Virus record (IMG/VR): IMGVR_UViG_3300006143_000002
Origin: a virus
Taxonomy: Duplodnaviria > Heunggongvirae > Uroviricota > Caudoviricetes
Strand: one strand, 5' to 3'
DNA length: 64,000 nucleotides
Shown: one piece after another, positions 8,881-39,498 of the stretch
Layout of the letters: each line of letters starts with the position of its first letter
Numbering within the stretch: position 1 is the first letter of the stretch
The notes under the pieces: generated by a model
What the model saw: the letters and a program-made list of their open reading frames with translations, nothing else
The model's database searches: none
Told to the model about the DNA's origin: nothing
Program-made: the position numbers and the translations under genes

Positions 8881-11706
8881 CTACTTTGTTACTATCCATA
8901 TATCACCATTTGCTGCTCCTGATGGTGTACTACTCTGTATAAATACTTTTCTACCATTTACAGTCAGATTTGTTGTATTTGTAGTTGTAAAATATCCAGT
9001 ACTATATCTTGCAGCAGATGTTCCTATTGCATAAGTATTATTTGCAGATGGTGTTAATGCTCTTGAAGTAATTGTTCCTGTCATTGTTCCCCCAGAAATA
9101 GGTAAGGCTTCTGTTCCTGTACTTCTAGTAATAGCAAAATTAGATATATTACCTGTTCCGTCAAAAGTTACACTTGCTACTGCTGTTTTAGTAACTACTT
9201 TACTATTTTCTAATGTTGTTGAATATTCTCCTGTTGGTATAGAAATAGTTGTATTATCTGCTGCGTCTGCAATACTTCCATTTATTCCAACTAATTGTAT
9301 TCTATTGTTAGCATCTCTATATGCTATATAAAAAGGTCTGTCATTTTTATTATAATAGTTATTAGTTAATCTTTTCTTAAAATCATCTGTAAGCGTTCCA
9401 TTAAAATATAATATTTCATCAACTTTAGTATAATCAGGTTTAATTGTAACTGTATTCGTTCCACTATCATCTGCTATAGCAAAGTCAACAAAGTTCAAAT
9501 TCTTTCTAAATGCTACATTTGAATTATTGTTTTTTATATCTCTTCTTAATTTAGTTGCTATGTTATCATAACCATCTTGTGTAAATTCCATAGTCAAATC
9601 AAAATTCTTTGTACCATCTGTTTTTAGATTTGTACTTTTTGTTGCATTTATTGAAACATCTCCATCAGTACTTCCTACTGTAAATTCTTTTGTTAATTTA
9701 TCAACTGTTGCTCCTGCAATATGTCCTACTTTATCTGTAACTACTATTTTATTTTGTGGAATATCTGCACCTATTGTATAATCTATATAATCTTCTGATA
9801 TTGCTTTTACATCTGCAGGTGTTAATGTAATACTTTCTCCTGACTTACCATTTACAGATTTTACACTTACACCTAAATCAGCTCTATTCCAACTCGAATT
9901 ATAATAATAAATCCAATCTCCTACTTTATAATTCTTTCCACCAAAAGTATTTGCTGTTGTAACTAACCATGCCTGTGATTCTTTAGGTGTTGCTGATGGA
10001 GCTCCTCCACCATCCCAATTTCCCATTATCCTTACTGCTTTTGTCAATCCTTCTGGTAATTGAGATTCTGGAACTATTCCGTTTACTAAACTTGGTATTT
10101 TAACACCAATATCACTAGGAGTTAATACTGCTGCAGAACCGTCAAGTGTAGTTGTTATTTTAAAACTATTTTTAGATGTATCTAATTTTGCATTTCCTTT
10201 TACTGCACCTGTTATTTCAAATGCAATCTCATGGTCTAATTCTTTTGCATTATAAGCAGTTGTTGGTAAATTTCCATCTGTATCTAATTTCAATGCTTTT
10301 CCTGAAGTTGGTGTATCTGATACTATATTAGAAGCATCTGTTGACATTGTTAAAGATAATTTATCATAACCGAATAAAACTTCTCCAGTAATATCTCCTT
10401 CTAATTTAAGTTTAGTATCGTGGTCTAAATCACTTGCTGTTAAAGCATTTCCTGGCAAATTCTTATCACTATCTACAAGTAATGCTTTTCCTGGAGTTGG
10501 AGATGTTGTAAACATATCATTTAATAAATCTTCTGTTTCTTTCTTATTGTAGTAATTTGATAAATCTTTACCTGCAGCTCCTTCTAATGCATCTAATCTA
10601 TCTGTTATATCTTTATGCTTATGCTTATCTGGGTCTATTGTTAAAGGTATTGTTGTATTTGTATTATTGATAACTGTTCCTTGTCCTGTTGCTCCTCCTG
10701 TAAATGCTAATATAAAATTATCTGTACTCAATGTAAATTTCTTTTTAGATGCTGACCATATTATCTTTGCACCTTTATATTCCATATTAGTTAATTTATC
10801 AATCATTTCTTGTAAAGCATTTGATTTAGCAACTGTACTAAAATCTGATATATCTGCTGCTTTATGAACATGTGATTTTAGTGCAAAATCTGTAGCATGT
10901 AATCCATCTAATTTATCTACATTAAAATTAAATGTAGCTGGTAGTGTACCATCTGCTTGTCCTTGCACAAGTTTATTATATATTGCTTCTCCAGATAATT
11001 GTAAATTTTCTAATTGTAAATTTCCTTCATGCCATACTTTATATCTATGTGCATCTGTCTTATATGGATTATTATCTAATGAAGGTCGTTCATTATAATC
11101 TACAAATATTTCATTATTTAGTACATTCCATTCTCCTCTTATATATGCAGTAGATTGGTCATCTATATATAACTCACCTTCAGATGAAAAAGAACCATTT
11201 GGAAGTATTCTTACCCCTCCACCTAAATAAGAAGATAGCACAAGATTATCATGTTTATCACTTACATATAATCTACCTTTGATTATTCTGTTTGCATCTC
11301 TTATTACTACTGAACCATCTCGTAGTAATCCATTATTATCTACTATTGTCGGATTTTGGTCATCTAAATATACTTCTTCTATGAAATCATGGTCTGTTCT
11401 GTATGCACTTGGATACTTATTATCAGAATATATACAAATCCACCTATTCATCCATAGCCACAATGAATTACTCTCCCAACAATAATATGTAATACCCATT
11501 TCTGGTATTATATTATTTTGTAAATCATTAACTGTATCTACTCCAACATATCCATATAATGTTCTTTTTGAATCAGATTCATCATACCATAGTTGTAGTG
11601 TATCTAGGCACATATACATATTATACTTATTACATTTAGTTCCTAGCAAATCATAATTATTCAATCTAATTATTTTATTTATTGTTGGTGTTGTAACTGA
11701 TGCCAT
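8881..11706 (-). CDS. tail fibre protein
   Basis: 941 aa, T/S/G/N-rich repetitive beta composition typical of phage fibres. Late motif and RBS upstream. Confidence 0.55.
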   Translation of the reverse strand: MASVTTPTINKIIRLNNYDLLGTKCNKYNMYMCLDTLQLWYDESDSKRTLYGYVGVDTVNDLQNNIIPEMGITYYCWESNSLWLWMNRWICIYSDNKYPSAYRTDHDFIEEVYLDDQNPTIVDNNGLLRDGSVVIRDANRIIKGRLYVSDKHDNLVLSSYLGGGVRILPNGSFSSEGELYIDDQSTAYIRGEWNVLNNEIFVDYNERPSLDNNPYKTDAHRYKVWHEGNLQLENLQLSGEAIYNKLVQGQADGTLPATFNFNVDKLDGLHATDFALKSHVHKAADISDFSTVAKSNALQEMIDKLTNMEYKGAKIIWSASKKKFTLSTDNFILAFTGGATGQGTVINNTNTTIPLTIDPDKHKHKDITDRLDALEGAAGKDLSNYYNKKETEDLLNDMFTTSPTPGKALLVDSDKNLPGNALTASDLDHDTKLKLEGDITGEVLFGYDKLSLTMSTDASNIVSDTPTSGKALKLDTDGNLPTTAYNAKELDHEIAFEITGAVKGNAKLDTSKNSFKITTTLDGSAAVLTPSDIGVKIPSLVNGIVPESQLPEGLTKAVRIMGNWDGGGAPSATPKESQAWLVTTANTFGGKNYKVGDWIYYYNSSWNRADLGVSVKSVNGKSGESITLTPADVKAISEDYIDYTIGADIPQNKIVVTDKVGHIAGATVDKLTKEFTVGSTDGDVSINATKSTNLKTDGTKNFDLTMEFTQDGYDNIATKLRRDIKNNNSNVAFRKNLNFVDFAIADDSGTNTVTIKPDYTKVDEILYFNGTLTDDFKKRLTNNYYNKNDRPFYIAYRDANNRIQLVGINGSIADAADNTTISIPTGEYSTTLENSKVVTKTAVASVTFDGTGNISNFAITRSTGTEALPISGGTMTGTITSRALTPSANNTYAIGTSAARYSTGYFTTTNTTNLTVNGRKVFIQSSTPSGAANGDIWIVTK

Positions 11707-11789: not shown

Positions 11790-12605
11790 CTAATTACCTA
11801 ACTTTTCATTCATTTTAGAAGATAAATCTGTTATCAGACTTATAGTAGCCTTCATGTCTAATATTGATATTGCAATATGGTCTAACCAACTTTTCATTTT
11901 ATTATATTCTTCATCTGGTATTCCATACTGTCTATACATATCATCCAATTTTAATTTTAAAAGACTTATATATATTGTAGCATTACCTTGTATCTCTTCT
12001 ATATCTTCGTCTGTTTCTGGTGTATTCTTGTTTGTACTAGATATATCATCTATGCTTAATTGTTTTTCTGTTTCTTCCTCTATATTAAGTTCCCTTGCTA
12101 AATCCTCTCTGTGTATATATTCTATCTCAATACTAACATCATAATCTTCTAATGCAGTTATCAAAGCATTTAATACCCATACAACCTCACCACTATATAC
12201 TGCTGTTATATATTTTGGTTCTCCCATAGGTGTTCTAAATATCTCTAACATACTATTCTGGTTATTTTTATACACATTACTTCTTATATGAATTGGTTCC
12301 GTAAATAGTTTCTCTGAAAAACTTGTATTTGTTTTACCTCCCCAGCTTAATATCATATTTCCTAATGCTATATTAAATTTTGTTTCGAATGCCTCCCAAT
12401 TATTTTCAGTTGCTTGTTCAATCTCATAGCTAAATGAGTTAATAACTTCTCTTGCTAATGATGCCCAAGTTGTTGGTTGTCGTCTAACTAATTTTTGTTT
12501 ATTTCCACAAAAACATTTTAATCCCAACACCTTTGTATAATTATAACCTTCAATATCAAAATTAAACTCATTTGGTCTAATTATTAAAAATTTACTATTT
12601 TCCAT
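11790..12605 (-). CDS. hypothetical protein
   Basis: Start set at MENSKF after RBS GGGGAGG. A TTGACA-17-TAAAAT promoter and a late-motif variant lie upstream. Confidence 0.4.
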   Translation of the reverse strand: MENSKFLIIRPNEFNFDIEGYNYTKVLGLKCFCGNKQKLVRRQPTTWASLAREVINSFSYEIEQATENNWEAFETKFNIALGNMILSWGGKTNTSFSEKLFTEPIHIRSNVYKNNQNSMLEIFRTPMGEPKYITAVYSGEVVWVLNALITALEDYDVSIEIEYIHREDLARELNIEEETEKQLSIDDISSTNKNTPETDEDIEEIQGNATIYISLLKLKLDDMYRQYGIPDEEYNKMKSWLDHIAISILDMKATISLITDLSSKMNEKLGN

Positions 12606-12620
12606 AATAGTATTCCTCCC

Positions 12621-12636
12621 CTTAAATATTTTTACC
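12621..12636 (-). promoter_or_regulatory. late-motif variant GGTAAAAATATTTAAGG
   Basis: Abuts the RBS GGGGAGG of the 11790..12605 gene. Confidence 0.3.
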
Positions 12637-12665
12637 ATAATATATGGTATTTTTACTATGGTGCT

Positions 12666-12694
12666 ATTTTATCATAGATATTTTTATCTGTCAA
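12666..12694 (-). promoter_or_regulatory. sigma-A-type promoter TTGACA-N17-TAAAAT
   Basis: Reverse complement reads TTGACAGATAAAAATATCTATGATAAAAT, upstream of the 11790..12605 gene. Confidence 0.5.
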
Positions 12695-12730
12695 TAGTAA
12701 AATAAAAAATTGCATAATATTTTTATCATG
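12694..12730. terminator. bidirectional hairpin terminator
   Basis: TTGCAT-AATATTTTTATC-ATGCAA flanked by T/A tracts on both strands, after the 12747..13262 gene. Confidence 0.45.
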
Positions 12731-18361: not shown

Positions 18362-20818
18362 TTATACTCCTCCATTTGCATAATATTCATTTCTTAATGA
18401 AATAATATTATCTTTTTTCCTTAGTTCAACTATCTTACTGATATTTTCTTTACCAATATTAATATTTTCTTTTATATTTTCACAAGTATAACCTGTTTCT
18501 GTTCTAGTTTTTATTTGTTTTTGCATAATTATACTTTCACCATCTTCTGCTAGTTCACATTGTTTTAAATCAGATAATTTTACAAAATCATTATTTATAT
18601 TATCTAATATTTTCATATACTCAACACATTTATCATCATATTTATCTTTAATAAATTTATAAAAATAATTCGCAGTTGCATTATATAGTTTTCTTAATTC
18701 TACATTTTTACCATTCATAGTCATTTCATAAACAGTCCTCATAGACTTCCAAAAAGAATAATAACTAAATTTAAGCTTTGTCATAAATGTTCCACATTCA
18801 ATTACAACGCCTTCTATATCTGTGTCTATTAATTCATTTTGATTTTTATGTTGTTCATAAAATTCAGTTAATTGCCTATATGTATCAAATTTAATATATA
18901 CTTGCTTATAATCTGTATCTTTTAATTTTAACGATTTAGCAATTTGCATTAATCCATCATAAGGTATCTTCTCAAAATCTACTTTATTATGAATTATATC
19001 TAATAAGACAACTCTACTTTCTTTTTCATCTATAATATGAGGGTCATTTTCTAAATCTATAACTTCAAATGTCATTGACATATTATTATTTTTTAGAAAT
19101 ACTGTAATATTGTCTATTTGTTCTTCTGTAAATGTATTATAAAATAAATTTTTAAAATACATTGCATATTCTCCACAATTTGAAGATTTACTATGAAATT
19201 GTAAATTATCATTATAATAACTTAAAATGCCCAAGAAACCATTATATTTTTTATAAGCAACAACTTCTTCATCTGTATCAAATAATCTCTTTAAATTAAA
19301 TAATCTACATGATTCTTGTTCGTTTATATTAAAGAACTTTTCATAACCTCTTGCTACTATTTTATTATTTACAGTATCTATAAATAAACCTCTTGCTTTA
19401 ACAGTTTCCTTATCCCATTTATCTTTTTCAAATGCTTTACGTGTAAAGTTGAATGATGATATTCCACCTTCTAATACACTTTCTCTTATATTTCTATTAT
19501 TTCTTAATCTATCTACAATATTTTCTATATTTATTTCTTGTGTATTTACTATTTGTTGGTGTTCTTCCCAAGATGTATCCCTATATAAGTCATTTTTTAT
19601 ACTATGGAAAAATATACCCTTATTTGTTAATTCTGCTACTTTTAGATTTCCACCAAATTCAACACCATCCTCTAATGAGAATGATAAAGGTAAATCTCTC
19701 ATTGGTTTTTCTGGTGCAATATATCTATGTCCGTGTATTTGTATTATTGATTTATTTTTCATGTTTTCTGTATATGATTCGTCAATAGGGAATTTGAAAG
19801 CTCCAACACCATGTATCATTTGACTTGTTGATATTAAAGGTAAATTATTTGGGATAGTATTCAATCCCCCATGACATACAAAATATGTTTGTCCTTTAAA
19901 GTTTATATAAGCCATTTGTCCTAGTTTTCTATAAAACTTTCTCATACTTGATGGGTCTATTGATTTAATTTGTGGTAATGTAAAGTTCATAAATTCTTTA
20001 CTTTTAATCTCGCTATCCAGTTCATTTGCCCAATACCAAATAAATCTTTCATGATTTCCTTCTAATAAAAGTACATTACTTTTTTGACATATACTAATAA
20101 TAAATTCTAATACTTCCTTATTTTGTAGTCCTCTATCTAAATAGTCCCCTACAAATATATAAGCATCTTCATCATTTAAAAATTGATGTAAATTTTGAGA
20201 ATTTACTTCTTCTTGATATTCTGTATATGTTTGTTTTAGTATATATTCTTTTAATGGGTTAAAACAACCATGAATATCTCCTATAATATGTATTCTTTTA
20301 TACTCATTAAAATCAAATTCTTTATTACTAAATGTTTCCCAAAACTTATCTCTAGGAATATCTACCCAACCACTTGTCTTTTCTTGAGTTTCAAATCTTG
20401 CATACATTTTATCAATTACTTCATCAGGAACTCTTTTATAGGCATTTCTTTGATGATTTCTTTCTATACATACTTCTTTTGGTACATCTGTAAATGATAC
20501 TACATACTTTCTATATCTATATGATTCACATAATGAATTATATCTACTAAAATCTGTTGAACGGCTATGTGTTGCATCTATTATAGTAAAATCTCCATTT
20601 TTCATTCTTTTCTCTAATAATTCATATAATAATGACCATATATAAGATTCATTTTCTTGTGATATAGTTGCATCTGTTCCATTTTCTGTCAATATTGGTG
20701 CAGATGCCATCATTCTTATATTATCTGGGCTTATTGTATATTGCTCTAAACCATTTTCTTTTATCCAGGTTGATTTACCTGAACCTGGGCATCCCCTTAA
20801 AACCACTAAATTTCTCAT
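18362..20818 (-). CDS. pnkp: trifunctional polynucleotide kinase / metallophosphatase / RNA ligase (bacterial Pnkp-like)
   Basis: P-loop GCPGSGKST. Calcineurin-like motifs GDIHG, GDYLDRG, GNHE. C-terminal covalent nucleotidyltransferase motifs I KYNG, III TFEVID, IV EGVVIE, V KLK in order. Start set at MRNLVV after RBS GAGAGGTAGG. The ORF-track N-terminal extension overlaps the promoter. Confidence 0.75.
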   Translation of the reverse strand: MRNLVVLRGCPGSGKSTWIKENGLEQYTISPDNIRMMASAPILTENGTDATISQENESYIWSLLYELLEKRMKNGDFTIIDATHSRSTDFSRYNSLCESYRYRKYVVSFTDVPKEVCIERNHQRNAYKRVPDEVIDKMYARFETQEKTSGWVDIPRDKFWETFSNKEFDFNEYKRIHIIGDIHGCFNPLKEYILKQTYTEYQEEVNSQNLHQFLNDEDAYIFVGDYLDRGLQNKEVLEFIISICQKSNVLLLEGNHERFIWYWANELDSEIKSKEFMNFTLPQIKSIDPSSMRKFYRKLGQMAYINFKGQTYFVCHGGLNTIPNNLPLISTSQMIHGVGAFKFPIDESYTENMKNKSIIQIHGHRYIAPEKPMRDLPLSFSLEDGVEFGGNLKVAELTNKGIFFHSIKNDLYRDTSWEEHQQIVNTQEINIENIVDRLRNNRNIRESVLEGGISSFNFTRKAFEKDKWDKETVKARGLFIDTVNNKIVARGYEKFFNINEQESCRLFNLKRLFDTDEEVVAYKKYNGFLGILSYYNDNLQFHSKSSNCGEYAMYFKNLFYNTFTEEQIDNITVFLKNNNMSMTFEVIDLENDPHIIDEKESRVVLLDIIHNKVDFEKIPYDGLMQIAKSLKLKDTDYKQVYIKFDTYRQLTEFYEQHKNQNELIDTDIEGVVIECGTFMTKLKFSYYSFWKSMRTVYEMTMNGKNVELRKLYNATANYFYKFIKDKYDDKCVEYMKILDNINNDFVKLSDLKQCELAEDGESIIMQKQIKTRTETGYTCENIKENINIGKENISKIVELRKKDNIISLRNEYYANGGV

Positions 20819-20836
20819 AAAATTTCCTACCTCTCT

Positions 20837-20865
20837 GTTTTTGTTTATTATATAATAAGTTTTAA
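20837..20865 (-). promoter_or_regulatory. consensus promoter (extended family member), drives pnkp
   Basis: Reverse complement reads CTTGACATATTTTAAAACTTATTATATAAT. Confidence 0.6.
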
Positions 20866-20881
20866 AATATGTCAAGTATTT

Positions 20882-22803: not shown

Positions 22804-22978
22804 ATCTACACAACTCCTTTAAATATGTATCATAATCTATGCTTTTCAATCTATTCTTAATAAACTTATATCTATCTCTTTGTATATAATCTCCACAATT
22901 TCCATCCTTACTTTCAGTTACATTACAAAATGGAAATTTACTACAAGTTCTGCACTTATTACATATAAAATTACTCAT
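22796..22978 (-). CDS. small Cys-rich protein
   Basis: [13 protein letters not shown]. Confidence 0.3.
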
Positions 22979-23876
22979 AGCTACCTCCTAATCTTGATGG
23001 GTGTCTTAATTTCCTAAATGCCCTTGCTTCTATTTGTCTTATTCTTTCTTTTGTTACACCTAGTTGCCTTCCTGTATCTTCTAATGTATATGGTGCATTA
23101 TTTAAACTTGTTCCATCTTTTATTTTTGGTATATCTTTATAATATATATCTGGTAATAGACCATACCTGTACTTTAATACAAAAGATTCTCTTGTTGTAA
23201 GTGTATTATTCAAATGATATATTAACTTTTGTACTATTCTAGAATTATTTTCTATTTTATCTATCTCATTAAGTATAAATTCATCATTTATTATATCTAC
23301 AGTAGTATTACTATATGTATCATCTATATATTCTTCTATTTTACTTGAATTTTGATTATGTATTATTTTTGCATGGTCAAACAAGTGCATTGTTCTTGCA
23401 AAACCTTTATTTCTATTATCTAACATTCTCATTTGATATTCAATTTCCAAATCTTTATCTTCCATAAAATAATCATTAGGATACTTTTTTCTATAATCTG
23501 CTATTGCTTCCTTTATATATTCTTCGTCTGTTTTACTTTCATATACTTTATGAAAGTAACCTCTATCTGTAATTTTATTTCTATAATATAAGTTAGATGC
23601 TAAACAATTAGAAGAATCACCATCTTTAAAATCAACAACATCTAAACCATCTTTATTATCTACAAAATATTCTGCAACTAAATTAGCAAGGTCTATTAAT
23701 CTAAAACCTTTTCGAGTACCTGTTCTCAAATATACTTTTGTTCTAGAACCTCCCGATGTAGATAAAGTATAATGTTTTAAATATTTACCTGTTGATTTTT
23801 CTCTAACTATACTCATATTAGATACTTCATAATCTTGGTTGTTTTCGATTGTTTTCCACTCTATCATAAACCTCAC
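22971..23876 (-). CDS. sigma-70 region-4 domain protein with an N-terminal NUMOD4-like motif
   Basis: C-terminus [15 protein letters not shown]...[29 protein letters not shown] is a near-textbook sigma region 4.1/4.2. N-terminus [20 protein letters not shown] resembles the NUMOD4 motif of homing endonucleases. Confidence 0.55.
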
Positions 23877-23902: not shown

Positions 23903-23977
23903 TGGCAGGAGTGCTAGGATTTGAACCCAGACAAACAGTTTTGGAGACTGCTGTGCTACCATTAACACTACACTCCT
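23903..23977 (-). tRNA. tRNA-Trp (anticodon CCA)
   Basis: 75-nt cloverleaf folded by hand: 7-bp acceptor AGGAGTG/CACTCCT, D-stem GTGT/GCAC, anticodon stem GCAGT/ACTGT with loop CTCCAAA, T-arm CTGGG-TTCAAAT-CCTAG, discriminator G and encoded CCA. Confidence 0.65.
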
Positions 23978-23986
23978 ATATAGGGT

Positions 23987-24062
23987 TGGAGCTTCATATT
24001 GGATTCGAACCAATGGTCACAGATTTGCAATCTGTTGCCTTAACCAACTTGGCTAATGAAGC
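23987..24062 (-). tRNA. tRNA-Cys (anticodon GCA)
   Basis: 76 nt: acceptor GCTTCAT/ATGAAGC, anticodon stem ACAGA/TCTGT with loop TTGCAAA, T-arm ATTGG-TTCGAAT-CCAAT, encoded CCA. Confidence 0.65.
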
Positions 24063-24086: not shown

Positions 24087-24875
24087 CTACTCTTCTTCTG
24101 GTACTAATAAAAATTTATCTATAAAATCTCTATCTTTATTAAATAATGGTATTTCTGTATCACAGAATATTCCCTCATCTTTTCTATATACACAAAATCC
24201 TCTTTTCCATTTAGTTTCTAAATTATTCCAATTTATATTGTACTTTTCCATTAACATATCTTGTATATCACTTGTATTTTTCTTATCAAGTTGTTTTTGA
24301 CTAAACTTTGATTGTCCTAGTGATTGTATTGAGTTTCTTGATGCATCTTGTTGCCTCCATAAAAAGTAATTACATACATCTTCCTTTGGTATATTAAATG
24401 CTCTTGCATCAAACATTGCTATACCCATTTTCTTTTGCCATTTATTAAATAAGTCTAAATTCTCTGGTTCATCTGAATTTGCATAACCAGACCAAGCTAA
24501 TACCTTTTGTGTTACAAACTTATTAAAATACATTGTTGCTGCTGATGCTATTACTGAACATACCTTTTGTAATCTATAATCAAAATAACTATCAGTAGTT
24601 AATTTATCCCAGTCTGTTAATAATAAACTTATCTCATCAGACTGTGTATATGCTAACTTGCACCCTTGAACACTCAATATAAGATTTTCACAAACATATT
24701 GCATTACTTGTGATAGTATTTCATCAAATGGTTTATCTAAACCTCTTGTAAATGTGTGGAATGCTTTACCATCTATTCTTACTATAACAGGTGTTCTTTT
24801 TGTAAGTTTAACATCTGATACAGATTCATAATCTTTCATTCTATCACTTAATGTTTTTATCTTTGAATTTGACAT
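24087..24875 (-). CDS. thg1: Thg1-like protein (tRNA 3'-5' nucleotidyltransferase, TLP)
   Basis: Collinear matches to the Thg1 family: VIVRIDGKAFHTFT, KPFD, LAYTQSDEISLLL, FDARAFNIPKEDVCNYFLWRQQDASRNSI, KYNINWNNLETKWKRG. Confidence 0.8.
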   Translation of the reverse strand: MSNSKIKTLSDRMKDYESVSDVKLTKRTPVIVRIDGKAFHTFTRGLDKPFDEILSQVMQYVCENLILSVQGCKLAYTQSDEISLLLTDWDKLTTDSYFDYRLQKVCSVIASAATMYFNKFVTQKVLAWSGYANSDEPENLDLFNKWQKKMGIAMFDARAFNIPKEDVCNYFLWRQQDASRNSIQSLGQSKFSQKQLDKKNTSDIQDMLMEKYNINWNNLETKWKRGFCVYRKDEGIFCDTEIPLFNKDRDFIDKFLLVPEEE

Positions 24876-25057: not shown

Positions 25058-25861
25058 CTATATTGTAAAATCATAATTTAAAGCTTTCTCATTTATATCT
25101 ATCAACCATTTATTTATTTTATGATAATCTGGTGTCTTTTGTAATGTACTTTCATCATAGTATTGGTGTATCTCTTTATCTAATCTGTCAAACATATCAA
25201 ATATTTCTTCTAATGTATATTTTCCTGCTCTTATATCTAATAATAATTTTCTCTCTTCTTCTGGTCTGTAAGAACAATAATCATGTGTTAATAATATTTG
25301 TTTTGCACAATATAGTAATCTTATAGCATGATAAGCAAATTTAGTATCATAACCAAATTTTTCAACTAAATCTTGTCTGCCAGTTCCATTTTGCTTCTTT
25401 ATATCTAGTTTATACCTTTGTGACATTGCAAATCCACAAAACTTTTTATATATTTCCTTAGATAAAAATTCTTTTCTTATACTTCTTAACTCTTTTCCAA
25501 AATCATCTATATGAATTATATCTTCATCTCTACAAAATAGTATATCAATATTATTTGGTACACCTTGCATAGCGTCTCTAACAAATTTATTTATATGGCA
25601 TATTACTATATCAATATCTTCTTTTGTATTATGTTCTCCAAAATTTTTACCACCAGACTTATTATATTCATTTATAGATTTTAATCCTAAATAATATTCT
25701 TTTGGTGGAATACATACACCCTTATAATCAGTATCAGATGTTTCTACATTTGTTCCATATATAACTGAACCTGCTTTAGTTAATAATATTGTTCTGTCTT
25801 CCAACCACATCATATTATCTGGTAGAACATGTTCTATATCTTTAAAACTAACTTTTGCCAT
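25058..25861 (-). CDS. Pol-beta-superfamily nucleotidyltransferase (RlaP / PF10127-like, RNA-repair-associated type)
   Basis: GSVIYGTNVETSDTDYKGV matches the hG[GS]...SDxD nucleotidyltransferase signature. 267 aa. Adjacent to the Thg1-like gene. Confidence 0.5.
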   Translation of the reverse strand: MAKVSFKDIEHVLPDNMMWLEDRTILLTKAGSVIYGTNVETSDTDYKGVCIPPKEYYLGLKSINEYNKSGGKNFGEHNTKEDIDIVICHINKFVRDAMQGVPNNIDILFCRDEDIIHIDDFGKELRSIRKEFLSKEIYKKFCGFAMSQRYKLDIKKQNGTGRQDLVEKFGYDTKFAYHAIRLLYCAKQILLTHDYCSYRPEEERKLLLDIRAGKYTLEEIFDMFDRLDKEIHQYYDESTLQKTPDYHKINKWLIDINEKALNYDFTI

Positions 25862-29704: not shown

Positions 29705-31694
29705 TTAAAATAAACTATTATTTTTAGTATTTCCACCTATTAAATCTAAAAATGCTTGTTCTGTAATTATTTCAACACCATATTTTTGGGCATCTTTATT
29801 TTTGCTTGAACCACTATCTGGAGTATTTGTTATTAAATACTTACAAGACTTTATAGCACTTGATAGTTCATATCCATAACTTTCAATATACTTTTCAAAT
29901 GCACTTCTTTTCATTGTATTTAATGCACCTGTTACAGCAACTTTAATTATTTCTTTATTAGATACTTCTTTATACTTTATTCTATTTCCTATATATAATA
30001 TATTTTTTAATTTAGTTGTTTGATTTTCTATTATAGATTTAGTTGTAGCTTCTTTGACAATTTTTAATAACTTGTCACTTAGAATATTATCTATATATCC
30101 TAAACCTTTTATATCATTTATTAGCTGCTTTACTGTATTTGTTTCTTTTGCTAAATCTTTTGCAGTTTTATCACCTAATCTTGGGATATTTAAAGCAATT
30201 AAAGCTTTTTCTACATCTACCTTATTATTATATAGTTTTCCAAAAAATTCTACAGCCTTTCTATCTGTTATACTTAAATTAGATAAGTAAGCCCAGCTAT
30301 CAATTTTTTCTTTAGTTTCTAAACAATATAAATCTGATATACTCATGATTCTAAATTTTACTAAATATTGTTCCATAAGTGTCCAAGCCATACCATCTGT
30401 TTCGCCTATTGTTTCACACCATTGTCTTAAATCACTATATTCTATATTTGGACAATCTTTAAATGCACATTTTAAATCTACACCATCCCAAATTAAAGTA
30501 TGTCCACATATTGAGCATTTTTCTGGTAAATCTACATCTGCTGCTTCTAATGTGTCCATGTGCTTTGGAATAACCTCACCACTTCTGCATACAGAAATTG
30601 TAGCACCAACACCTAAACCATTATCTAATAAATATTGAGCATTATTTCCAGTTACATTATGCACTACTGCACCAGACAATTCTATTGGCTCAATTTCTAA
30701 TACTGGTATATATCTTTGTGTTCTTGATAATTCCCATTTAATATTATTTATTGTAGTTTCTTTTTCTTCTGCTGCAAATTTAAAAGCACACTCATCATAA
30801 ATATATGATTTTGCATCTTCATGATATATAACTTCTGTATTTGAGATTACAACACCATCTAATTCGTATCCCATCGTATATTTAAAACTTTCAAATGTAT
30901 CTTTCATATATTCTTCAAATTTATCTTTTCTATCTAATATAGTGGTAACAGTTTCAATAACATTCTTAAAATTCCACTTCAACCAATCTTTAATGTCTTC
31001 TTTGGCTGGATTTCTTCTACTACATACACTATCTGTAACAATATTATTCATATCCCTTTCTTGTCCTGTTATTTTATAAGTTATAAAATCAATTAATTTT
31101 ATATCATCTATTGAATAATCTTTAGAGTTTATCCAACCAGCACATAAATTTCTTGCATTTTTAGCTTCGGGATATTTATATTTAACCTTTTCCCAGTTTT
31201 CAACAGATATTTCTAATTCTCCTCTTACACCACCTGTAAAATTCTTATCTTCTATTTCATTACCTACAATTATTCTCGCCTTATCTGTAATATCTTTTCC
31301 CTCTTGACCATTACCTCTTGTAACTGCTTTAATCAATTTACCACCTTCATAATAAAATACACCAGTTAAACCATCTAGTTTAGGAGATAAAGATACAAAC
31401 CCATTTTTAAATCTTTCAGGAACTTCATCATAAGTTCTACATTTATCAAGACTTTTTACTAATTGATACTTATGTTTTACTTTATGCCCTGTTTGTTTGT
31501 AACCCCATCCGAGGAACTTGCAATATTTTAGAAGTAGGATTTAATAATCTTAGTCTATCAACCAAATTATCAAACTCTACATCTGTCAATGTTTGTGTAC
31601 CATCTGTATAATACTTCTCAGACTGTTCCTTTATAATTCTTTCTAATTTTTCAATTTCTTCTTTTTCATAATCACCGAATAACACAATAGTCAC
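29705..31694 (-). CDS. ligA: NAD+-dependent DNA ligase (LigA), split into two ORFs by a 1-nt frame shift at a CAAACAAACA repeat (~31486..31500)
   Basis: Upstream 70-aa ORF carries domain Ia (YYTDGTQTLTDVEFDNL...PTSKILQVPRMG). After a +1 shift the frame continues HKVKHKYQLVKSLDK...KLDG (adenylation motif I)...TRGNGQEGKDIT, then a Cys4 Zn finger CSICGHT..C and a C-terminal BRCT-like domain. Total ~663 aa. Confidence 0.65.
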
Positions 31695-32565
31695 ACTCCT
31701 TATTAAATATTCCTTTTTTTATATGATGTCTTATGTGCATAGCCAATTTCATACTCTTACCAAAATTTGGATTAGATTTACCTTTCATAGAACCATCTCT
31801 AATACCAGATTTAAGCTCTGCTTTATATGTATTCCACTTTTCTGATTTTATCATGCCATTTTTAGTAGATATAGATGTTTTTTCTCTTTCCAGTACATTA
31901 CTAAATCTTTCTTTCTGTGCATTTGATAAATTTTGTTTCATACTATCTGTAAAATGTTTACCATACATCGGATTTTTATCTCCTGATAAATCAGATTTTT
32001 TATGCCTTCCCTCCTTGTATGCCAATTTTAAAGATATACTTCTTTTATTTCTTTCACTTTCTGTTTGTATTCTTCCTTTATTATACTTACCCATATCTTT
32101 ACTCTTCAATGTTTCTGATATTCTTTTTCTGGTTTCTTCACTGTGATAATATCCATATAACTCTATTTTTCTTTTCATAGATTCTTTTAACTTATTTCTT
32201 GTTTCTTGTGGTATTTTTCTTTCTTTTGCACTTAAAGACATTTTTTCTTTTGTTGATAGAGTATGTTCATCTTTTGAACCTTTTCCACCATGTTGAATAT
32301 TATAACAATATTCATCTTCTAGAACTTCTTTGGTTATGATTTCATTTTCAAATTTCAAAGCTTCATCATGACTTTCAAAAAATTTTATGATTTCTCTACT
32401 AAAACTTTCTTTCCCATACTTTCTAACTGCATTTAAAAAATGATACCCAGAACCAATATAACCATCATTTATGTTATTTGTACTATGAACACCATAGTAA
32501 TAATAAGGTGTTCCAATCCTTCTTGTGATATAAACAAAATGATACTTTTTCATATAATATTTCAC
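31672..32565 (-). CDS. GIY-YIG homing-endonuclease-like protein
   Basis: N-terminus YHFVYITRRIGTPYYYYGVHST...GYIGSG has GIY-x10-YIG spacing. K/S-rich C-terminus. Lies directly upstream of ligA. Confidence 0.5.
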   Translation of the reverse strand: MKYYMKKYHFVYITRRIGTPYYYYGVHSTNNINDGYIGSGYHFLNAVRKYGKESFSREIIKFFESHDEALKFENEIITKEVLEDEYCYNIQHGGKGSKDEHTLSTKEKMSLSAKERKIPQETRNKLKESMKRKIELYGYYHSEETRKRISETLKSKDMGKYNKGRIQTESERNKRSISLKLAYKEGRHKKSDLSGDKNPMYGKHFTDSMKQNLSNAQKERFSNVLEREKTSISTKNGMIKSEKWNTYKAELKSGIRDGSMKGKSNPNFGKSMKLAMHIRHHIKKGIFNKECDYCVIR

Positions 32566-32584
32566 CTCATTAATATTTTACTAA
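32565..32584 (-). promoter_or_regulatory. conserved late-gene motif (AGTAAAATATTAATGAGGTG)
   Basis: Here the GAGG of the motif doubles as the RBS, 9 nt before the ATG of the GIY-YIG gene. Confidence 0.4.
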
Positions 32585-32614
32585 ATATGTTACTAATGAA
32601 GTACCCTGATAATA

Positions 32615-32920
32615 TCATACACTATCAATATAACCATTACCAAATCTATCTCTTACATCATCTATTATATCTTCAAACCTTACCACATTATGTCTTTTTA
32701 GTAATTTTGAAAATGAGATACTTTTTTCTGTACTAACTATAGCACTCCAGAAATAATGTAATATTCCTTCTGGGTTTCTTTGTTGCATTCTCATTCTAGT
32801 ATATCTTGCACCTTGTGACATTTCAGGTATATTATTTTCTGTACCATATTGTATTGCTGGTTCAAATATGGTTTCATTAAAATAATTTAACATTTCTTCT
32901 TTTCTTTCTTGTTCTAACAT
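32615..32920 (-). CDS. hypothetical protein
   Basis: 101-aa ORF. Confidence 0.3.
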   Translation of the reverse strand: MLEQERKEEMLNYFNETIFEPAIQYGTENNIPEMSQGARYTRMRMQQRNPEGILHYFWSAIVSTEKSISFSKLLKRHNVVRFEDIIDDVRDRFGNGYIDSV

Positions 32921-34767: not shown

Positions 34768-34859
34768 TGGCGACATAGCTAGGATTTGAACCTAGGAACC
34801 CATTTCTGGATTGCCAGTTTTCAAGACTGGTGCATTAAACCAAACTCTGCCACTATGCC
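34768..34859 (-). tRNA. tRNA-Ser (anticodon TGA), type II
   Basis: 92 nt: acceptor GGCATAG/CTATGTC, 3-bp D-stem with long loop, anticodon stem CCAGT/ACTGG with loop CTTGAAA, long variable arm, T-arm CTAGG-TTCAAAT-CCTAG, encoded CCA. Confidence 0.6.
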
Positions 34860-34872
34860 CTATTTTTATTTA

Positions 34873-34944
34873 CAGCCATTGTTGGATTCGAACCAACCTC
34901 TCCTTACATTAGTAAAGTAATTTTTCCTACTAAACTAAATGACT
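34873..34944 (-). tRNA. tRNA-like gene, non-canonical (good acceptor and T-arm, aberrant D/anticodon region)
   Basis: Acceptor AGTCATT/AATGGCT, T-arm GTTGG-TTCGAAT-CCAAC. The central region folds as CTTTAC-TAAT-GTAAGG rather than a 7-nt anticodon loop. Confidence 0.3.
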
Positions 34945-35032
34945 ATATTAAAAAGATGCTTGATTTCTGCAGCTCTCAGCATCTTTTTGCCTAATCTCTA
35001 TATAGTGAATTCTGCCTATATATTTTAGACTT

Positions 35033-35103
35033 GCCTTTGAAATGGATTCGAACCATTGACTCCCTGTCGCATACAGGGGATTTTCCCACTAAACTATCAA
35101 AGG
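35033..35103 (-). tRNA. tRNA-like gene, anticodon loop TATGCGA (possible TGC/Ala, with A at position 33)
   Basis: Acceptor CCTTTGA/TCAAAGG, anticodon stem CCCTG/CAGGG, T-arm AATGG-TTCGAAT-CCATT. The D-arm is irregular. Confidence 0.35.
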
Positions 35104-35197
35104 GTATAATGTAAAGTAGGAGTAAATTATATTGACGTCAAATATAAATTTTATATCTAATGCGAGATACTATATTAACCTACTTTATTTTTGCATA

Positions 35198-35259
35198 TCA
35201 CCTGTTATGGATTCGAACCACTTTCTCCTATACATATATTTTCATACATGCAGCAGGTG
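35198..35259 (-). tRNA. tRNA-like fragment (T-arm and acceptor only, ~62 nt)
   Basis: TTCGAAT T-loop with a 6-bp acceptor. Too short for a D-arm and anticodon arm, so probably a pseudo-tRNA. Confidence 0.2.
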
Positions 35260-35264
35260 TTATT

Positions 35265-35339
35265 TGGTCGCAGGGGTTGGATTTGAACCAACATCGTCCG
35301 AAATATGGGCTCAGCTATGCTATATTACACCACCCTGCT
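35265..35339 (-). tRNA. tRNA-like gene, possible CAT anticodon, non-canonical
   Basis: Acceptor (A)GCAGGG/CCCTGC(G) with a 1:72 mismatch, T-arm GTTGG-TTCAAAT-CCAAC, encoded CCA. Anticodon stem CTGAG/TTCGG has wobble pairs and loop CCCATAT. D-arm is poor. Confidence 0.3.
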
Positions 35340-35343
35340 ATAT

Positions 35344-35419
35344 TGGGTGCGAGGGCTGGATTCGAACCAGCGAACTCTAGCTTATGAGGCTAGTGAGATG
35401 CCAACTTCTCCACCTCGCA
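35344..35419 (-). tRNA. tRNA-Met/Ile2 (anticodon CAT)
   Basis: 76-nt canonical cloverleaf: acceptor TGCGAGG/CCTCGCA, D-stem GAGA/TCTC, anticodon stem CTAGC/GCTAG with loop CTCATAA, T-arm GCTGG-TTCGAAT-CCAGC, discriminator C and CCA. Confidence 0.65.
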
Positions 35420-35454
35420 GTATTAAATTATTAGCATTACCTAATTAAAGGCTG

Positions 35455-35526
35455 GTCGAGTACATTGGATTCAAACCAATTCCATCATCCACCTGTTGGA
35501 TGCCGTGCACCATACACCATACTCGA
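35455..35526 (-). tRNA. tRNA-like gene, anticodon loop AACAGGT (non-canonical, no U33)
   Basis: Perfect 7-bp acceptor TCGAGTA/TACTCGA, D-stem GTGT/GCAC, anticodon stem CATCC/GGATG, T-arm ATTGG-TTTGAAT-CCAAT with one extra nucleotide before the acceptor. Confidence 0.35.
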
Positions 35527-35700
35527 TATATATATATACAAATGATTTAAGGTATATCATCAACCACACATCGAGCATTATTTATTTTTCATAGACTAAA
35601 CTATGATTAATCTATTTCATCTCATGCTCTATTTTGTTCACCTTTGAGAACCCTATGAAATAGATTATATATTACTTATACATAATATATAACATCTTTA

Positions 35701-35793
35701 TGGCGATAAGGGAGGGATTCGAACCCTCGATACATAATTAAATGTATGTCTCCTTAGCAGAGAGATGGTTTAAACCTACTCACCCACCTTACC
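35701..35793 (-). tRNA. tRNA-Ser (anticodon GCT), type II
   Basis: 93 nt: acceptor GGTAAGG/CCTTATC, anticodon stem TCTCT/GGAGA with loop CTGCTAA, long variable-arm hairpin ATACAT...ATGTAT, T-arm GAGGG-TTCGAAT-CCCTC, discriminator G and CCA. Confidence 0.6.
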
Positions 35794-36007
35794 ATTATAT
35801 TTTTAAATTGGTGAGATTCATAAACAACTAACTTTAGTCCCAGTAGAACGGATATTACCTTCATATTGCAATTCTCTTGTGTATGGTCATAGCAATACAT
35901 ATCTACAAAGTTTTAGTCCAGATATTCCATACATACTAATATCTAGTTTTATTTTAGTTGATTTGTGTACAACTCTGTTTAGTACCACATACACTTTGGT
36001 ACTTTTT

Positions 36008-36078
36008 CAGGGTATTGCAGGACTCGAACCTTAACTCTCTGCAATAGCAGATTGTTTTACCATTTAAACTATCAACCC
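36008..36078 (-). tRNA. degenerate tRNA-like element (perfect D-arm, weak acceptor and T-stem)
   Basis: GGGTTGA-TA-GTTT-AAATGGTA-AAAC D-arm and T-loop TTCGAGT. Acceptor pairs only 4 bp. Anticodon loop has 6 nt. Confidence 0.25.
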
Positions 36079-36313
36079 ATATATCTGTGAGAGCCTAATC
36101 ACTCTCTAGGGAATTGAAACCCTCCCAACTTGCAAAATTGGTACTTGTCACCCTATTATATTTAATCCAGTGTTTGTGTCCTACAAGATTACTCTTGTTA
36201 TTAAACGATACATAAGATTTTTGAGCTGGTTTTCTTATGCAGTAGAACCATCACTCTACATTTCAAACAGTCAGCTTTGTTCACTAGAGGCTACAACTTT
36301 CTCCGTCATGATT

Positions 36314-36342
36314 ATATTACCACAAGTTTAAATATATGTCAA
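36314..36342 (-). promoter_or_regulatory. promoter TTGACA-N17-TAATAT driving the tRNA array
   Basis: Reverse complement reads GCTTGACATATATTTAAACTTGTGGTAATAT. First tRNA-like gene lies ~230 nt downstream. Confidence 0.55.
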
Positions 36343-36358
36343 GCATTTTTTAAATTTT

Positions 36359-37903
36359 TTATTTAATTTTTTTATAAATTCTACTAAATGCCTCATATTC
36401 ACTTAAACATACTGGCTTAAAATTATTAACATCTACACCAACATTATATGAATTTTTAATCTTTTTTATAATATGGCTATTGCTATGAATATGCCCATAT
36501 AGATGAGTGCTACCATATTCTTTTTGTTTCCATGAAGATATTGGAAAATGAAATAATATGTATTTCTTATTATTGACTGTTATTTCTTTATAATCAACTA
36601 TCTCCTCAAATAAAGACTGGTCAAAATCTTTTCCAATACATATATTATCATGATTTCCTAATATAAGTATCTTTCTACCTCGTAATCTCTTAACAATTTC
36701 ATTAGTTTCTTTACTATTTCTAAATGATAAATCACCTAATATGAACACTAAATCATCATCATGTTTTACTGTACTATTCCATCTTCTTATAAGTTCTTCA
36801 TCATGAATTTTTATATATTCCTTATTAACCTCCATTTTATATTTATCCCAAAGGTCATCTGGTATATTATAAATTTCTTCATTTGTCAAACCTTCATCTT
36901 TTAATTTATTTACTATTGCTTGATGTTGGGTTATTCCACATAACTCCCATCTTTTTGGTTCAAAGTCTAATATATTTTCATGTCCAAAATGTAAGTCAGA
37001 TGTAAAAAATATTTTATCTGAGGTTGGTAACGATAGACCGCTTTTTCTTCTCCATTTATTTCTTTTTGGTGTAAAAATATTTCTTAAATATTTTTCAAAT
37101 ATTTTAACAGAGATTTTACTTAAAAATTCTTTAACCATGTCTTCACTATTTACTTCATTAAAAAACATATTTCTATGTGACTTTAATTGATTTATACTAT
37201 CATTTGCCAAATCTCTTGCTTCTTCTAATGAATATTTGCTTAATTTAGCATTAGTTAAAACTTCAATATTATCTTCCATATAATTATGGGAATTCATAGA
37301 TTTTTTAAAATCAAATGTTTCTATATATTTTTCTGCAAATAAATTTAATCTTAGTATATGATGTAATTGTTTTCCATCATATCCATATTTTTCTATCTTA
37401 TCTCTCAACCCTTCATAAGGATGTTCTAATGCTTCTAATTTATTTAAAGCCATACCATAAGTACAAACTATTAATTTTACTGGATTTGCACTAGAAATCA
37501 TATCAGCATTATCTAATATTTCTAACATATCATTTTTAAATAATGGGTTTAATATTCTAAATTCTGTATGTAATATTTCAAGATATTTTATATTTTGTTT
37601 TCTAAATAATTCTGTTATTAACCTAATATCTTTAACATCTATATGTTCATTATTATCTAATATTATTGTTTCAGATATATATTCATCCTTATTTATTAAG
37701 TTTTCAAAGGTAGGTAATACAATAGCTACTGTATCTATATCAGATTTATACTCATCTGTATATAAATCTAAATTATAATTTTGACTTCCTTGTAAGGCTA
37801 CCATTAAAAACTCATATTGTGGTCTCAATCTTTTTAATTCATTTACATGGTACTTTATACCTTTAAATATATTATTTTTTCTTTGTTTATCTATATCTGC
37901 CAT
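36359..37903 (-). CDS. Pol-beta nucleotidyltransferase (RlaP-like) fused to a calcineurin-like metallophosphoesterase
   Basis: N-terminal ALQGSQNYNLDLYTDEYKSDIDTVAIV nucleotidyltransferase signature. C-terminal metallophosphoesterase motifs SDLHFGHEN, ILGDLSF, GNHDN, GHIH. Lies directly upstream of the tRNA-array promoter. Confidence 0.55.
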   Translation of the reverse strand: MADIDKQRKNNIFKGIKYHVNELKRLRPQYEFLMVALQGSQNYNLDLYTDEYKSDIDTVAIVLPTFENLINKDEYISETIILDNNEHIDVKDIRLITELFRKQNIKYLEILHTEFRILNPLFKNDMLEILDNADMISSANPVKLIVCTYGMALNKLEALEHPYEGLRDKIEKYGYDGKQLHHILRLNLFAEKYIETFDFKKSMNSHNYMEDNIEVLTNAKLSKYSLEEARDLANDSINQLKSHRNMFFNEVNSEDMVKEFLSKISVKIFEKYLRNIFTPKRNKWRRKSGLSLPTSDKIFFTSDLHFGHENILDFEPKRWELCGITQHQAIVNKLKDEGLTNEEIYNIPDDLWDKYKMEVNKEYIKIHDEELIRRWNSTVKHDDDLVFILGDLSFRNSKETNEIVKRLRGRKILILGNHDNICIGKDFDQSLFEEIVDYKEITVNNKKYILFHFPISSWKQKEYGSTHLYGHIHSNSHIIKKIKNSYNVGVDVNNFKPVCLSEYEAFSRIYKKIK

Positions 37904-38820: not shown

Positions 38821-39498
38821 CTATATATTTATTTTAACATCTTGTGCTTTTAATTTATCTAATGCCTCTTGAAAATAATCCATAGTTAAACCTGTTTCTG
38901 TATCTACATGTATTAAATTATCTCCATACTTATATAAATCAAATATATCATCATCTATAATTAGAAAAGGTATATTTTTAAATGTAAACATTCCACTTCC
39001 TTTAAAATGATAATCTTCTATTTCATCTTCTCTCCAAGATATATAATTTTCTTTTGGTATTCTATTAGTCCTACCACCTATATAGGCTTTAACTTTATTT
39101 ATCTTAAAAACTGTATTCCATTCTGTTGGTGTCAATTCATATCTTCTTGTAGTTGTTAATATAATTGTATATGGTGCAACATCATATAACTTATTTAAAA
39201 ATTCAACTGCTTCCTTTTGAAAACACCATTGTTGCATAAAATTTCTATATTCAAAATCTTTATTTTCATCTTCTTTATGAACTAAAGCATTATGGATTTT
39301 TATTATATAATTACTACCTGCAGTTACACCATCCATATCTAAATATAGTATAAACTTATATTTTTCATCTGTTTCTATTTTATATGGCTCTAATGATTTC
39401 ACTAATTCATCTGGTGTATATCTACTTAATAATTTCTTAAAATCTTTCTGTAATTCTTCATTTGATAAATCCTTAAATTTCATTTTACCAACCTTCAC
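38821..39498 (-). CDS. HAD-superfamily phosphatase
   Basis: Motif I ILYLDMDGVTA (hhhhDxDGV), motif II IILTTT, late DDD. Confidence 0.45.
   Translation of the reverse strand: MKVGKMKFKDLSNEELQKDFKKLLSRYTPDELVKSLEPYKIETDEKYKFILYLDMDGVTAGSNYIIKIHNALVHKEDENKDFEYRNFMQQWCFQKEAVEFLNKLYDVAPYTIILTTTRRYELTPTEWNTVFKINKVKAYIGGRTNRIPKENYISWREDEIEDYHFKGSGMFTFKNIPFLIIDDDIFDLYKYGDNLIHVDTETGLTMDYFQEALDKLKAQDVKINI

Follow-up and report, generated by a model that had tools for sequence, protein, structure and literature searches.

Layout of the tRNA array

We analyzed a stretch of viral DNA of 64,000 nucleotides (nt) (IMG/VR record IMGVR_UViG_3300006143_000002; Caudoviricetes), hereafter the window, and focused on an array of tRNA and tRNA-like genes on its minus strand (36078-34768). 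By means of ARAGORN, Rfam, motif search and folding, three standard tRNAs were identified in this array, together with six tRNA-like genes whose anticodon loops are non-standard. Judging from the sequence features, the region appears to be a polycistronic small-RNA operon, in which the three ordinary tRNAs and the six tRNA-like RNAs are accompanied by conserved non-tRNA RNAs (X and S1-S3). The features are as follows (scores in bits refer to Rfam model RF00005; minimum free energy is abbreviated MFE, base pair bp; L numbers denote related loci, see below):

36342-36314, minus strand: main sigma-70-type promoter, TTGACA-17-TAATAT with upstream TG
36182-36155, minus strand: second promoter-like site, AGGACA-16-TATAAT; element X begins a few bases further on
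36152-36084, minus strand: element X, a structured non-tRNA RNA of ~69 nt, present in nine arrays; no Rfam match
36078-36009, minus strand: E1, tRNA-like (19.4 bits; relaxed ARAGORN)
36008-35794, minus strand: spacer S1, a non-tRNA RNA segment of ~215 nt (69-82% identity to L024, L027 and L014)
35793-35701, minus strand: E2, standard tRNA-Ser(GCU), type II, CCA encoded (54.9 bits)
35700-35526, minus strand: spacer S2, a non-tRNA RNA of ~175 nt
35525-35453, minus strand: E3, tRNA-like (ARAGORN only; no RF00005 match)
35419-35344, minus strand: E4, standard tRNA-Met(CAU), CCA encoded (63.6 bits)
35339-35265, minus strand: E5, tRNA-like (33.9 bits)
35259-35198, minus strand: E6, tRNA-like, 62 nt, no D-arm (motif scan and MFE fold only)
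35103-35033, minus strand: E7, tRNA-like (47.3 bits)
34945-34872, minus strand: E8, tRNA-like, member of family 1 (41.2 bits; 6-nt loop in ARAGORN)
34859-34768, minus strand: E9, standard tRNA-Ser(UGA), type II, CCA encoded (54.8 bits)
34767-34694, minus strand: spacer S3, ~70 nt, directly 3' of the last tRNA (79% identity to L020; also conserved in L014)
34629-34602, minus strand: intrinsic terminator, an 11-bp stem followed by a T run

A first-pass annotation of the window had proposed three well-formed tRNAs (Ser-TGA, Met/Ile-CAT and Ser-GCT), a consensus promoter at 36314..36342 and a terminator for the array. ARAGORN and Rfam agreed on the three tRNAs (Ser-UGA, Met-CAU and Ser-GCU), and both the promoter and the terminator were recovered as listed above. 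The view of the array as one promoter-terminator unit was roughly right as well, but a second promoter-like site and conserved non-tRNA RNAs are present within it. The main promoter sequence was conserved in L012, L024 and L027, and an AGGAC..TATAAT-type motif was also found ahead of X in relatives. The minus strand from 36342 to 34602 contains no credible open reading frame (ORF). A protein-coding reading of the array region was rejected, as the ORFs there are short and mostly antisense to tRNAs.

Several minor features were also observed in this region. A possible internal terminator or attenuator was noted between E7 and E8 (34988-34950, minus strand), where a T run comes after a 9-bp hairpin (AAAGATGCT...AGCATCTTT) whose loop exceeds the length covered by the terminator scan used. 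Nearly all 5' ends of tRNA and tRNA-like genes within 34768-36152 have an A/U-rich, TATAAT-like leader (e.g., aatataat before GGTAAGG and ttaatat before AGTCATT), which may represent either a processing-site context or multiple weak promoters. A relaxed ARAGORN call of 'tRNA-Val' over the terminator was discarded as a false positive.

Anticodon loops of the tRNA-like genes

A standard anticodon loop has 7 nt, U33 and a suitable purine at position 37. Departures from this rule were found in E1 (4 or 6 nt), E8 (6 nt), E3 and E7 (A33) and E5 (C33). E8 has the 6-nt loop CUAAUG, which can close to form a 6-bp stem with a UAAU tetraloop; in cmscan, a 7-nt loop was forced only by breaking the closing pair, with low posterior probability. 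The loop of E7 is UAUGCGA (A33 and G37), and this gene has U3-A70 where G3:U70 would be expected for 'Ala-UGC' and does not encode CCA. E3 has the loop AACAGGU (A33), the T-loop UUUGAAU (U56), a 3-bp D stem and an encoded ACCA, and its variable loop is only 5 nt, without the long variable arm that should go with the 'Leu-CAG' triplet. The 32:38 pair is closed in the RNAfold MFE structures of both E3 and E7. E5 combines the loop CCCAUAU (C33) with an A1.G72 mismatch, a D-loop without GG and an encoded ACCA, and E6 consists of a 6-bp acceptor stem, a 9-bp hairpin and the T arm GGUUCGAAUCC. The anticodon arm of E1 has a 4-5 bp stem and the loop C-UAUU-G (4 nt, or 6 nt if taken as CTATTG); the other stems of this copy are weak (acceptor ~4 bp, T ~3 bp). 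With regard to the RF00005 gathering score of 29 bits, E5, E7 and E8 were above it and E1 reached 19.4 bits, while E3 and E6 had no match.

Most of what had been described previously for these genes held up. The aberrant loops TATGCGA and AACAGGT and a 4-nt loop were recovered in E7, E3 and E1, respectively. Covariance-model folding, a check set beforehand that could have overturned this observation, did not restore normal loops. Two of the odd members (E3 and E5) indeed encode CCA. On the other hand, at least five such elements had been proposed, with perfect acceptor stems and a T-arm sequence common to them; there are in fact six, the stems of E1 are poor and the T-arm of E3 is GGTTTGAATCC. 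E6 lacks a D-arm and is 62 nt long. When Rfam was searched at E values up to 10, nothing credible was found for E3, E6, X or the spacers, and the matches to plastid RNAs, small nucleolar RNAs and microRNAs were rejected as chance or antisense to tRNA.

Conservation and covariation in related arrays

Related contigs were retrieved from IMG/VR, ENA and Logan by homologs (100% to 50% identity) of the 514-amino-acid (aa) RlaP-type protein encoded upstream of the array. In ten loci (L001, L012, L014, L016, L018, L019, L020, L021, L024 and L027), an array lies directly downstream of the RlaP-type gene, and the same gene order was observed, i.e., HAD_SAK_2, small ORFs, RlaP-type gene, array and NAD ligase. 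L019 represents the same phage as the window and was excluded, which left nine independent relatives; L013, L017 and L025 are duplicates of L012, L016 and L024, and L022 has the RlaP-type gene without an array. All arrays were scanned by relaxed ARAGORN and motif scans. Array content varied among relatives; every odd element of the window belongs to a family that recurs in related arrays, and these families persist even where the flanking protein is only 55-60% identical.

Family 1 (E8) was found as one copy in each array of sufficient length. With a covariance model of this family, nine copies scored 66-96 bits and everything else 48 bits or less. In the alignment of 10 sequences, 96.6% of the cells were paired and 14 of the 21 pairs had compensatory changes, compared with only 39-52% of cells paired in controls with slid partners. 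None of 500 shuffles reached the observed values in four of five measures, and 4 of 500 did so in the fifth. The loop CUAAUG was invariant except for one CUGAUG (L018), and the copy in L024 has a poor acceptor stem. The E7-like family (n = 7) gave a very similar picture, with 96.6% of the cells paired and compensatory changes in 15 of 21 pairs. Its A33 and G37 were invariant, and positions 34-36 were different in each member (UGC, AGA, GAU(G), GUU, GGU, GCU and UUU).

Smaller families behaved likewise. The four distinct sequences of the E5 family all have the A1.G72 mismatch and an encoded ACCA; four of the five pairs of their anticodon stem showed compensatory changes, and their loops are CCCAUAU (twice), AGCUUGU and AACCUAU. 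The E3 ortholog in L012 has only structure-preserving differences, and that of E6 in L024 has a compensatory change in the acceptor stem (CACCTG/CAGGTG to CACCTA/TAGGTG). Orthologs of E1 in L024 and L027 (loops CTGTTG and CCATTG) have better stems than the window copy. In two additional families absent from the window, the long-variable-arm family and the 'CCUACUAUGG' family, a tetraloop whose sequence varies closes an anticodon stem of 6-7 bp; the predicted fold of families 2, 6 and E1 is a long stem ending in a tetraloop. The standard families of the same arrays have fixed loops, such as CTTGAAA of Ser-UGA in five arrays and CTGTAAA of Tyr-GUA in four, and the Met family keeps CAT in all arrays.

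Covariation in the acceptor, D, anticodon and T stems thus shows that the whole predicted L-shape of the odd members is kept by selection. The same alignments show two recurrent types of anticodon loop: a 6-nt C-NNNN-G loop predicted to zip into a tetraloop, and a 7-nt loop with A33, G37 and a pairable 32:38.

One alternative is that the odd members are tRNA pseudogenes, decaying after duplication within a fast-evolving array. The E1 copy of the window (~4 acceptor pairs, ~3 T-stem pairs and 19.4 bits) would fit such a process, as would the poor acceptor stem of family 1 in L024, a tRNA-Tyr fragment beside the L001 array and the different content of arrays among relatives. However, two-sided covariation was strong in all helices, the families persist at 55-60% identity of the flanking protein, and family 1 is single-copy with an invariant loop. 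With the exception of the window's E1, 95-97% of the cells were paired and 6-15 pairs had changed on both sides, versus 38-53% of the cells in slid controls. Since the families recur in nine related arrays with compensatory changes in all four stems, the pseudogene option, also raised by the first-pass annotation, was rejected for most members, and we consider it improbable as a general explanation. The window's E1 copy looks partly decayed and is the sole such member.

Some side observations were made on these and other contigs. L014 contains a transfer-messenger RNA gene (9203-9567; tag peptide ANNYAEKVAA*) within the homologous tRNA array. In L001, ~5 direct repeats of TATATGAAATAAYACAGGTGTAAAAG follow the array (12430-12700), and part of a tRNA-Tyr copy, covering its anticodon and variable arm, is located at 12560-12593, which suggests recombination and turnover at array ends. 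A scan of IMG/VR with the family-1 D-arm pattern gave no true members. Two IMG/VR contigs of 84 and 122 kb (~40% G+C) from unrelated phages, L030 (3142-3209) and L034 (6228-6298), have tRNA-like elements with the family-1 D-arm and T-arm, a closed GC-rich anticodon hairpin (3-4 nt loop) and no obvious acceptor stem. It may be that loop-closed tRNA-like RNAs occur beyond this phage clade.

Decoding capacity of the odd members

The triplet at positions 34-36 differs even between close orthologs, for example GGU in L014 versus GCU in L027 (the middle base), or TAT versus TTT, and G37 is constant in the E7-like family regardless of the triplet. Triplet and tRNA body are also in conflict, as observed for E3 ('Leu' without a long arm), E7 ('Ala' without G3:U70) and elements of relatives called 'Ser' without a long variable arm. 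In the window ORFs, CUG accounts for 5 of 15,286 codons (0.3 per 1000). Because U33 is missing, G37 is fixed, the triplets vary and contradict the tRNA bodies, and CUG is nearly unused, the odd members are unlikely to decode.

Phage tRNAs that evade host tRNases by anticodon-loop substitutions have been documented (PMC10264068; PMC11464382; PMC11555353), including mycobacteriophage C1 and coliphage tRNAs (PMC10264068), T5 tRNA-Lys against PARIS (PMC11464382) and phage tRNA-Tyr against retron Ec78 (PMC11555353). The odd members might similarly be resistant tRNAs whose altered loops decode yet escape host anticodon nucleases, as the first-pass annotation had offered. CCA is encoded by E3 and E5, CAU with C33 is also present in two otherwise standard members of the Met family (L012 and L020), and AUA is the commonest Ile codon, for which an extra CAU (Ile2-type) tRNA could help. 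However, the triplets drift between close orthologs whereas no change was seen in the Ser-UGA, Tyr-GUA and Met-CAU triplets of the same arrays, and the identity elements disagree with the triplets; the fixed G37, the absent U33, the 6-nt loops of some members and the near absence of CUG point in the same direction. The documented cases resemble the genes studied here in that they lie in phage tRNA arrays, have an altered anticodon loop, are linked to tRNA-cleavage conflict and often have co-encoded repair enzymes. They differ in that they retain decoding, U33, the 7-nt loop and the anticodon of the targeted host tRNA, with substitutions confined to positions at which the nuclease recognizes or cuts the tRNA, whereas here loop size, U33 and triplet are lost or unconserved. 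As the documented cases keep both the anticodon and the 7-nt loop (PMC10264068), the isoacceptor reading is disfavoured, and we regard it as quite unlikely.

A role as suppressor tRNAs or in an alternative genetic code was rejected, since ORFs of at least 150 aa tile the minus strand under code 11 and none of the array loops presents a standard stop anticodon. As judged from these comparisons, most odd members are probably neither decoders nor dead copies, but selected, non-decoding tRNA mimics.

Conserved non-tRNA RNAs and a possible processing role

Element X consists of GGUGACAAGUAC, a hairpin, GGAGGGUUUCAAUUCC and a further hairpin with the invariant loop UGAUUAG. AAGUAC and CAAUUCC are invariant single-stranded motifs, and both hairpins covary; RNAalifold predicted 14 pairs, 7 of which have compensatory changes. 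X was found at 11734-11800 in L001 and in seven further loci. Exact-pattern scans of IMG/VR revealed one related contig and chance matches only, and a scan of Joint Genome Institute metagenomes gave no match. Conserved blocks and covarying hairpins were also observed in S1. More generally, sequence identity to relatives is 63-82% for S1-S3 and the leader (36313-36153, minus strand), and these segments contain covarying hairpins as well as invariant blocks. X and S1-S3 are always bounded by tRNA or tRNA-like genes, and the spacers look like further small RNAs that would be released between tRNAs.

It was also observed that the family-1 loop (CUAAU) is complementary to the X loop (AUUAG) over 5 bp, both being invariant, and that the L018 variant CUGAU would still pair with the X loop via G.U. 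This complementarity could reflect a kissing interaction, or it could be due to chance. In L014, family 1 is present, yet no X was found in the stretch examined.

These segments raise the main rival explanation, in which the odd elements serve mainly as processing handles, i.e., RNase P/Z recognition modules that set the ends of X, S1-S3 and the real tRNAs. X and S1-S3 abut odd elements, the conserved spacers begin and end at tRNA or tRNA-like boundaries, and acceptor and T stems are conserved. Moreover, E6 is reduced to an acceptor/T minihelix plus a hairpin, the D-loop of E5 has no GG, and loop sequences drift in most families. Such elements would resemble plant mitochondrial t-elements, which are tRNA-like processing signals (PMC1920247). 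As in t-elements and mitochondrial tRNA punctuation, degenerate tRNA-like folds with acceptor and T domains would mark RNA ends, and both E6 and the spacers fit this picture. However, those signals show no selection on the anticodon arm, which RNase P/Z do not need, whereas here the anticodon stems covary (compensatory changes in four of five pairs) and loop features such as the CUAAUG of family 1 and the A33 and G37 of E7-like members are fixed. In addition, several spacers are already flanked by real tRNAs, for which extra handles seem superfluous. We therefore consider the processing explanation unlikely for the odd members in general, although it is the strongest competitor.

tRNA-repair genes of the window

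The tRNA-repair set encoded in the window comprises the following genes:

18362-20875, minus strand: fusion of kinase, metallophosphoesterase and T4-type RNA ligase (Pnkp/Rnl-like), 837 aa, tRNA repair
24087-24875, minus strand: Thg1-like 3'-5' nucleotidyltransferase, tRNA repair
25058-25861, minus strand: stand-alone RlaP, tRNA repair
36359-37903, minus strand: RlaP-type nucleotidyltransferase fused to metallophosphoesterase, 514 aa (PHROG 388 and 547), upstream of the array
38821-39498, minus strand: HAD_SAK_2 protein

The tRNA-repair set of the window is unusually complete. The 514-aa gene adjoins the array, and the Thg1-like gene adjoins standard tRNA-Trp and tRNA-Cys genes (23903-24062). 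Homologs of the 514-aa enzyme carry PF10127 (RlaP), PF12850 and PF00149; searches of PDB and NCBIfam gave no sharper function for it, and it had only remote or partial matches. Before damaged tRNA ends are ligated, RlaP enzymes extend them by 1-2 nucleotides (PMC12776372), and jumbo phages have been proposed to pair RNA repair with their own tRNAs against host tRNA attack (PMC7824862). This phage lineage has evidently been selected by tRNA-directed attack.

A speculative alternative is that the odd members are substrates, cofactors or regulators of these enzymes (RlaP-type/phosphoesterase, Thg1-like and Pnkp/Rnl), for example RNAs matured by cutting, nucleotide addition and ligation, or RNAs with 5' editing of the conserved 1:72 mismatch. 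The array keeps tight synteny with the RlaP-type gene across ten loci. A 6-nt loop is one nucleotide short, as expected from a wobble-excised tRNA that is ligated without RlaP (PMC12776372), the A1.G72 mismatch is conserved, and a Thg1-like gene is present. However, this evidence is purely circumstantial, L022 has the gene without the array, and the nuclease that would start such a pathway was not identified. This explanation appears very improbable to us.

A possible role as tRNA mimics

The best explanation at present, to which we assign a probability of roughly 0.4 with weaker variants of it counted in, is that the odd members act as mimics that would occupy shape-recognizing tRNA nucleases as decoys or pseudo-substrates. 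This mode of action is favoured because the full L-shape, including the anticodon stem, appears to be selected and specific non-standard loop features are fixed. In this model, transcription of the odd members would start at the strong promoter, RNase P and RNase Z would excise them as they do tRNAs, and CCA would be added to them or is already encoded, without any decoding. Factors that recognize tRNA shape would then encounter a tRNA body whose anticodon loop would be closed and resistant to cleavage. The likeliest targets would be host tRNA-cleaving defence nucleases, which the mimics might occupy as decoys or pseudo-substrate inhibitors, while the repair enzymes and the real tRNAs would refill the decoding pool. 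A decoy role had also been among the options of the first-pass annotation; it is the best remaining reading and is supported by the tRNA-repair genes of the window, although it is reached by inference only.

Several points weigh against this explanation. If a nuclease reads the anticodon loop, its decoy would be expected to look like that loop; the loops found here do not, which leaves only shape-recognizing enzymes as potential targets. The conserved spacers bounded by odd elements fit a processing role equally well, and the E1 copy of the window is degenerate. As to the comparative evidence, the relatives represent one phage clade; the shuffle statistics overstate independence, the slid-partner controls being safer, and several families have only 3-4 distinct members.

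A more specific proposal is that the multi-family 'anticodon-disabled' mimics (closed by a tetraloop or by A33/G37) constitute an RNA anti-defence of this phage clade, as pseudo-substrate inhibitors or sponges for host nucleases such as those of the PARIS/OLD, Schlafen or PrrC/RloC type, alongside the co-encoded repair enzymes and replacement tRNAs. In this specific form, the idea is doubtful.

Comparison with known RNAs and significance

In the literature searched, no report was found of phage tRNA-like families that are conserved and carry 6-nt or A33/G37 loops. In phage T4, the tRNA gene cluster also contains two stable RNAs without a known function (species 1 and 2, rnaC/rnaD). That cluster is a phage operon in which tRNAs are co-transcribed with other small stable RNAs matured by the tRNA-processing machinery, as would be the array studied here; the extra RNAs of T4 are longer and are not known to be cloverleaf look-alikes. 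No sequence relationship to them was found in a distant search against phages, in which only tRNA-sized segments matched.

YrlA, a bacterial Y RNA, has a tRNA-like module and a long Ro-binding stem, and is encoded in Rsr/RtcB RNA-repair operons. Y RNAs would thus share with the odd members a non-decoding tRNA mimicry based on T-arm and acceptor, as well as a genomic link to RNA repair; however, they are larger and have a Ro-binding stem, whereas the elements here are tRNA-sized cloverleaves. Bacterial Y RNAs have also been mentioned alongside RNA repair in previous work (PMC7824862). Y-RNA families had no Rfam match at E values up to 10, and no Ro/TROVE domain was found among the window proteins scanned, which were a subset of the window ORFs. 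Finally, naturally non-canonical tRNAs, reportedly reviewed by Krahn et al. in 2020, also have a cloverleaf that departs from standard geometry. The known ones have a conserved anticodon and are charged, whereas the RNAs described here are known from sequence alone.

Phage tRNAs are currently viewed either as a supplement for codon usage or as resistant isoacceptors that replace cleaved host tRNAs. The array points to a third class, i.e., conserved tRNA-shaped RNAs that are apparently unable to decode. Should they serve as decoys or inhibitors of defences that target tRNA, they would represent an RNA-only counter-defence and provide ready probes for how nucleases recognize tRNA shape versus the anticodon loop; if they are processing handles, mitochondrion-style tRNA punctuation would be present in a phage operon. 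Annotation pipelines label such genes tRNA-Leu, tRNA-Ala, tRNA-Ile or 'tRNA-???', and this practice inflates and distorts phage tRNA repertoires in studies of codon usage and host prediction. The families are now defined by coordinates and covariance model and are open to direct testing.

Phage source and additional observations

The window has a G+C content of 25-33%, and all but one of its ORFs of at least 150 aa are on the minus strand. It was considered phage DNA because genes for a terminase-like protein, homing endonucleases and an NAD-dependent DNA ligase are present, and its source is an uncultured, AT-rich large phage. Megablast revealed no close DNA relative among cultured phages, and the terminase had only remote matches to deposited phages (identity of 34% or less). 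In the distant search against phages, only single tRNA-sized segments matched, of which a few carry unrelated annotations.

The NAD-dependent DNA ligase gene of the window (29705-32920, minus strand) is apparently interrupted. It is present as a 101-aa N-terminal ORF (32615-32920), an ORF for a homing endonuclease (31672-32565) and a 543-aa remainder (29705-31336). In the near-identical L019 (9986-11545), the ligase was called as a single ORF of at least 662 aa that runs off the locus end. No group I intron reached the threshold of Rfam; the interruption may be due to a mobile intron or an intein. Elsewhere in the window, a gene for a sigma-70 region-4 protein (22971-23876, minus strand) lies beside the standard tRNA-Trp and tRNA-Cys genes at 23903-24062.

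A mismatch at 1:72 and three G-C pairs in the anticodon stem are features of initiator-type tRNAs. In the standard Met-CAU family, a 1:72 mismatch (U.U or A.A) was present in all of L012, L014, L016, L020, L021, L024 and L027, while the window copy has a paired U1-A72. The three G-C pairs were found in the anticodon stems of the Met-CAU genes of L014 and L016.

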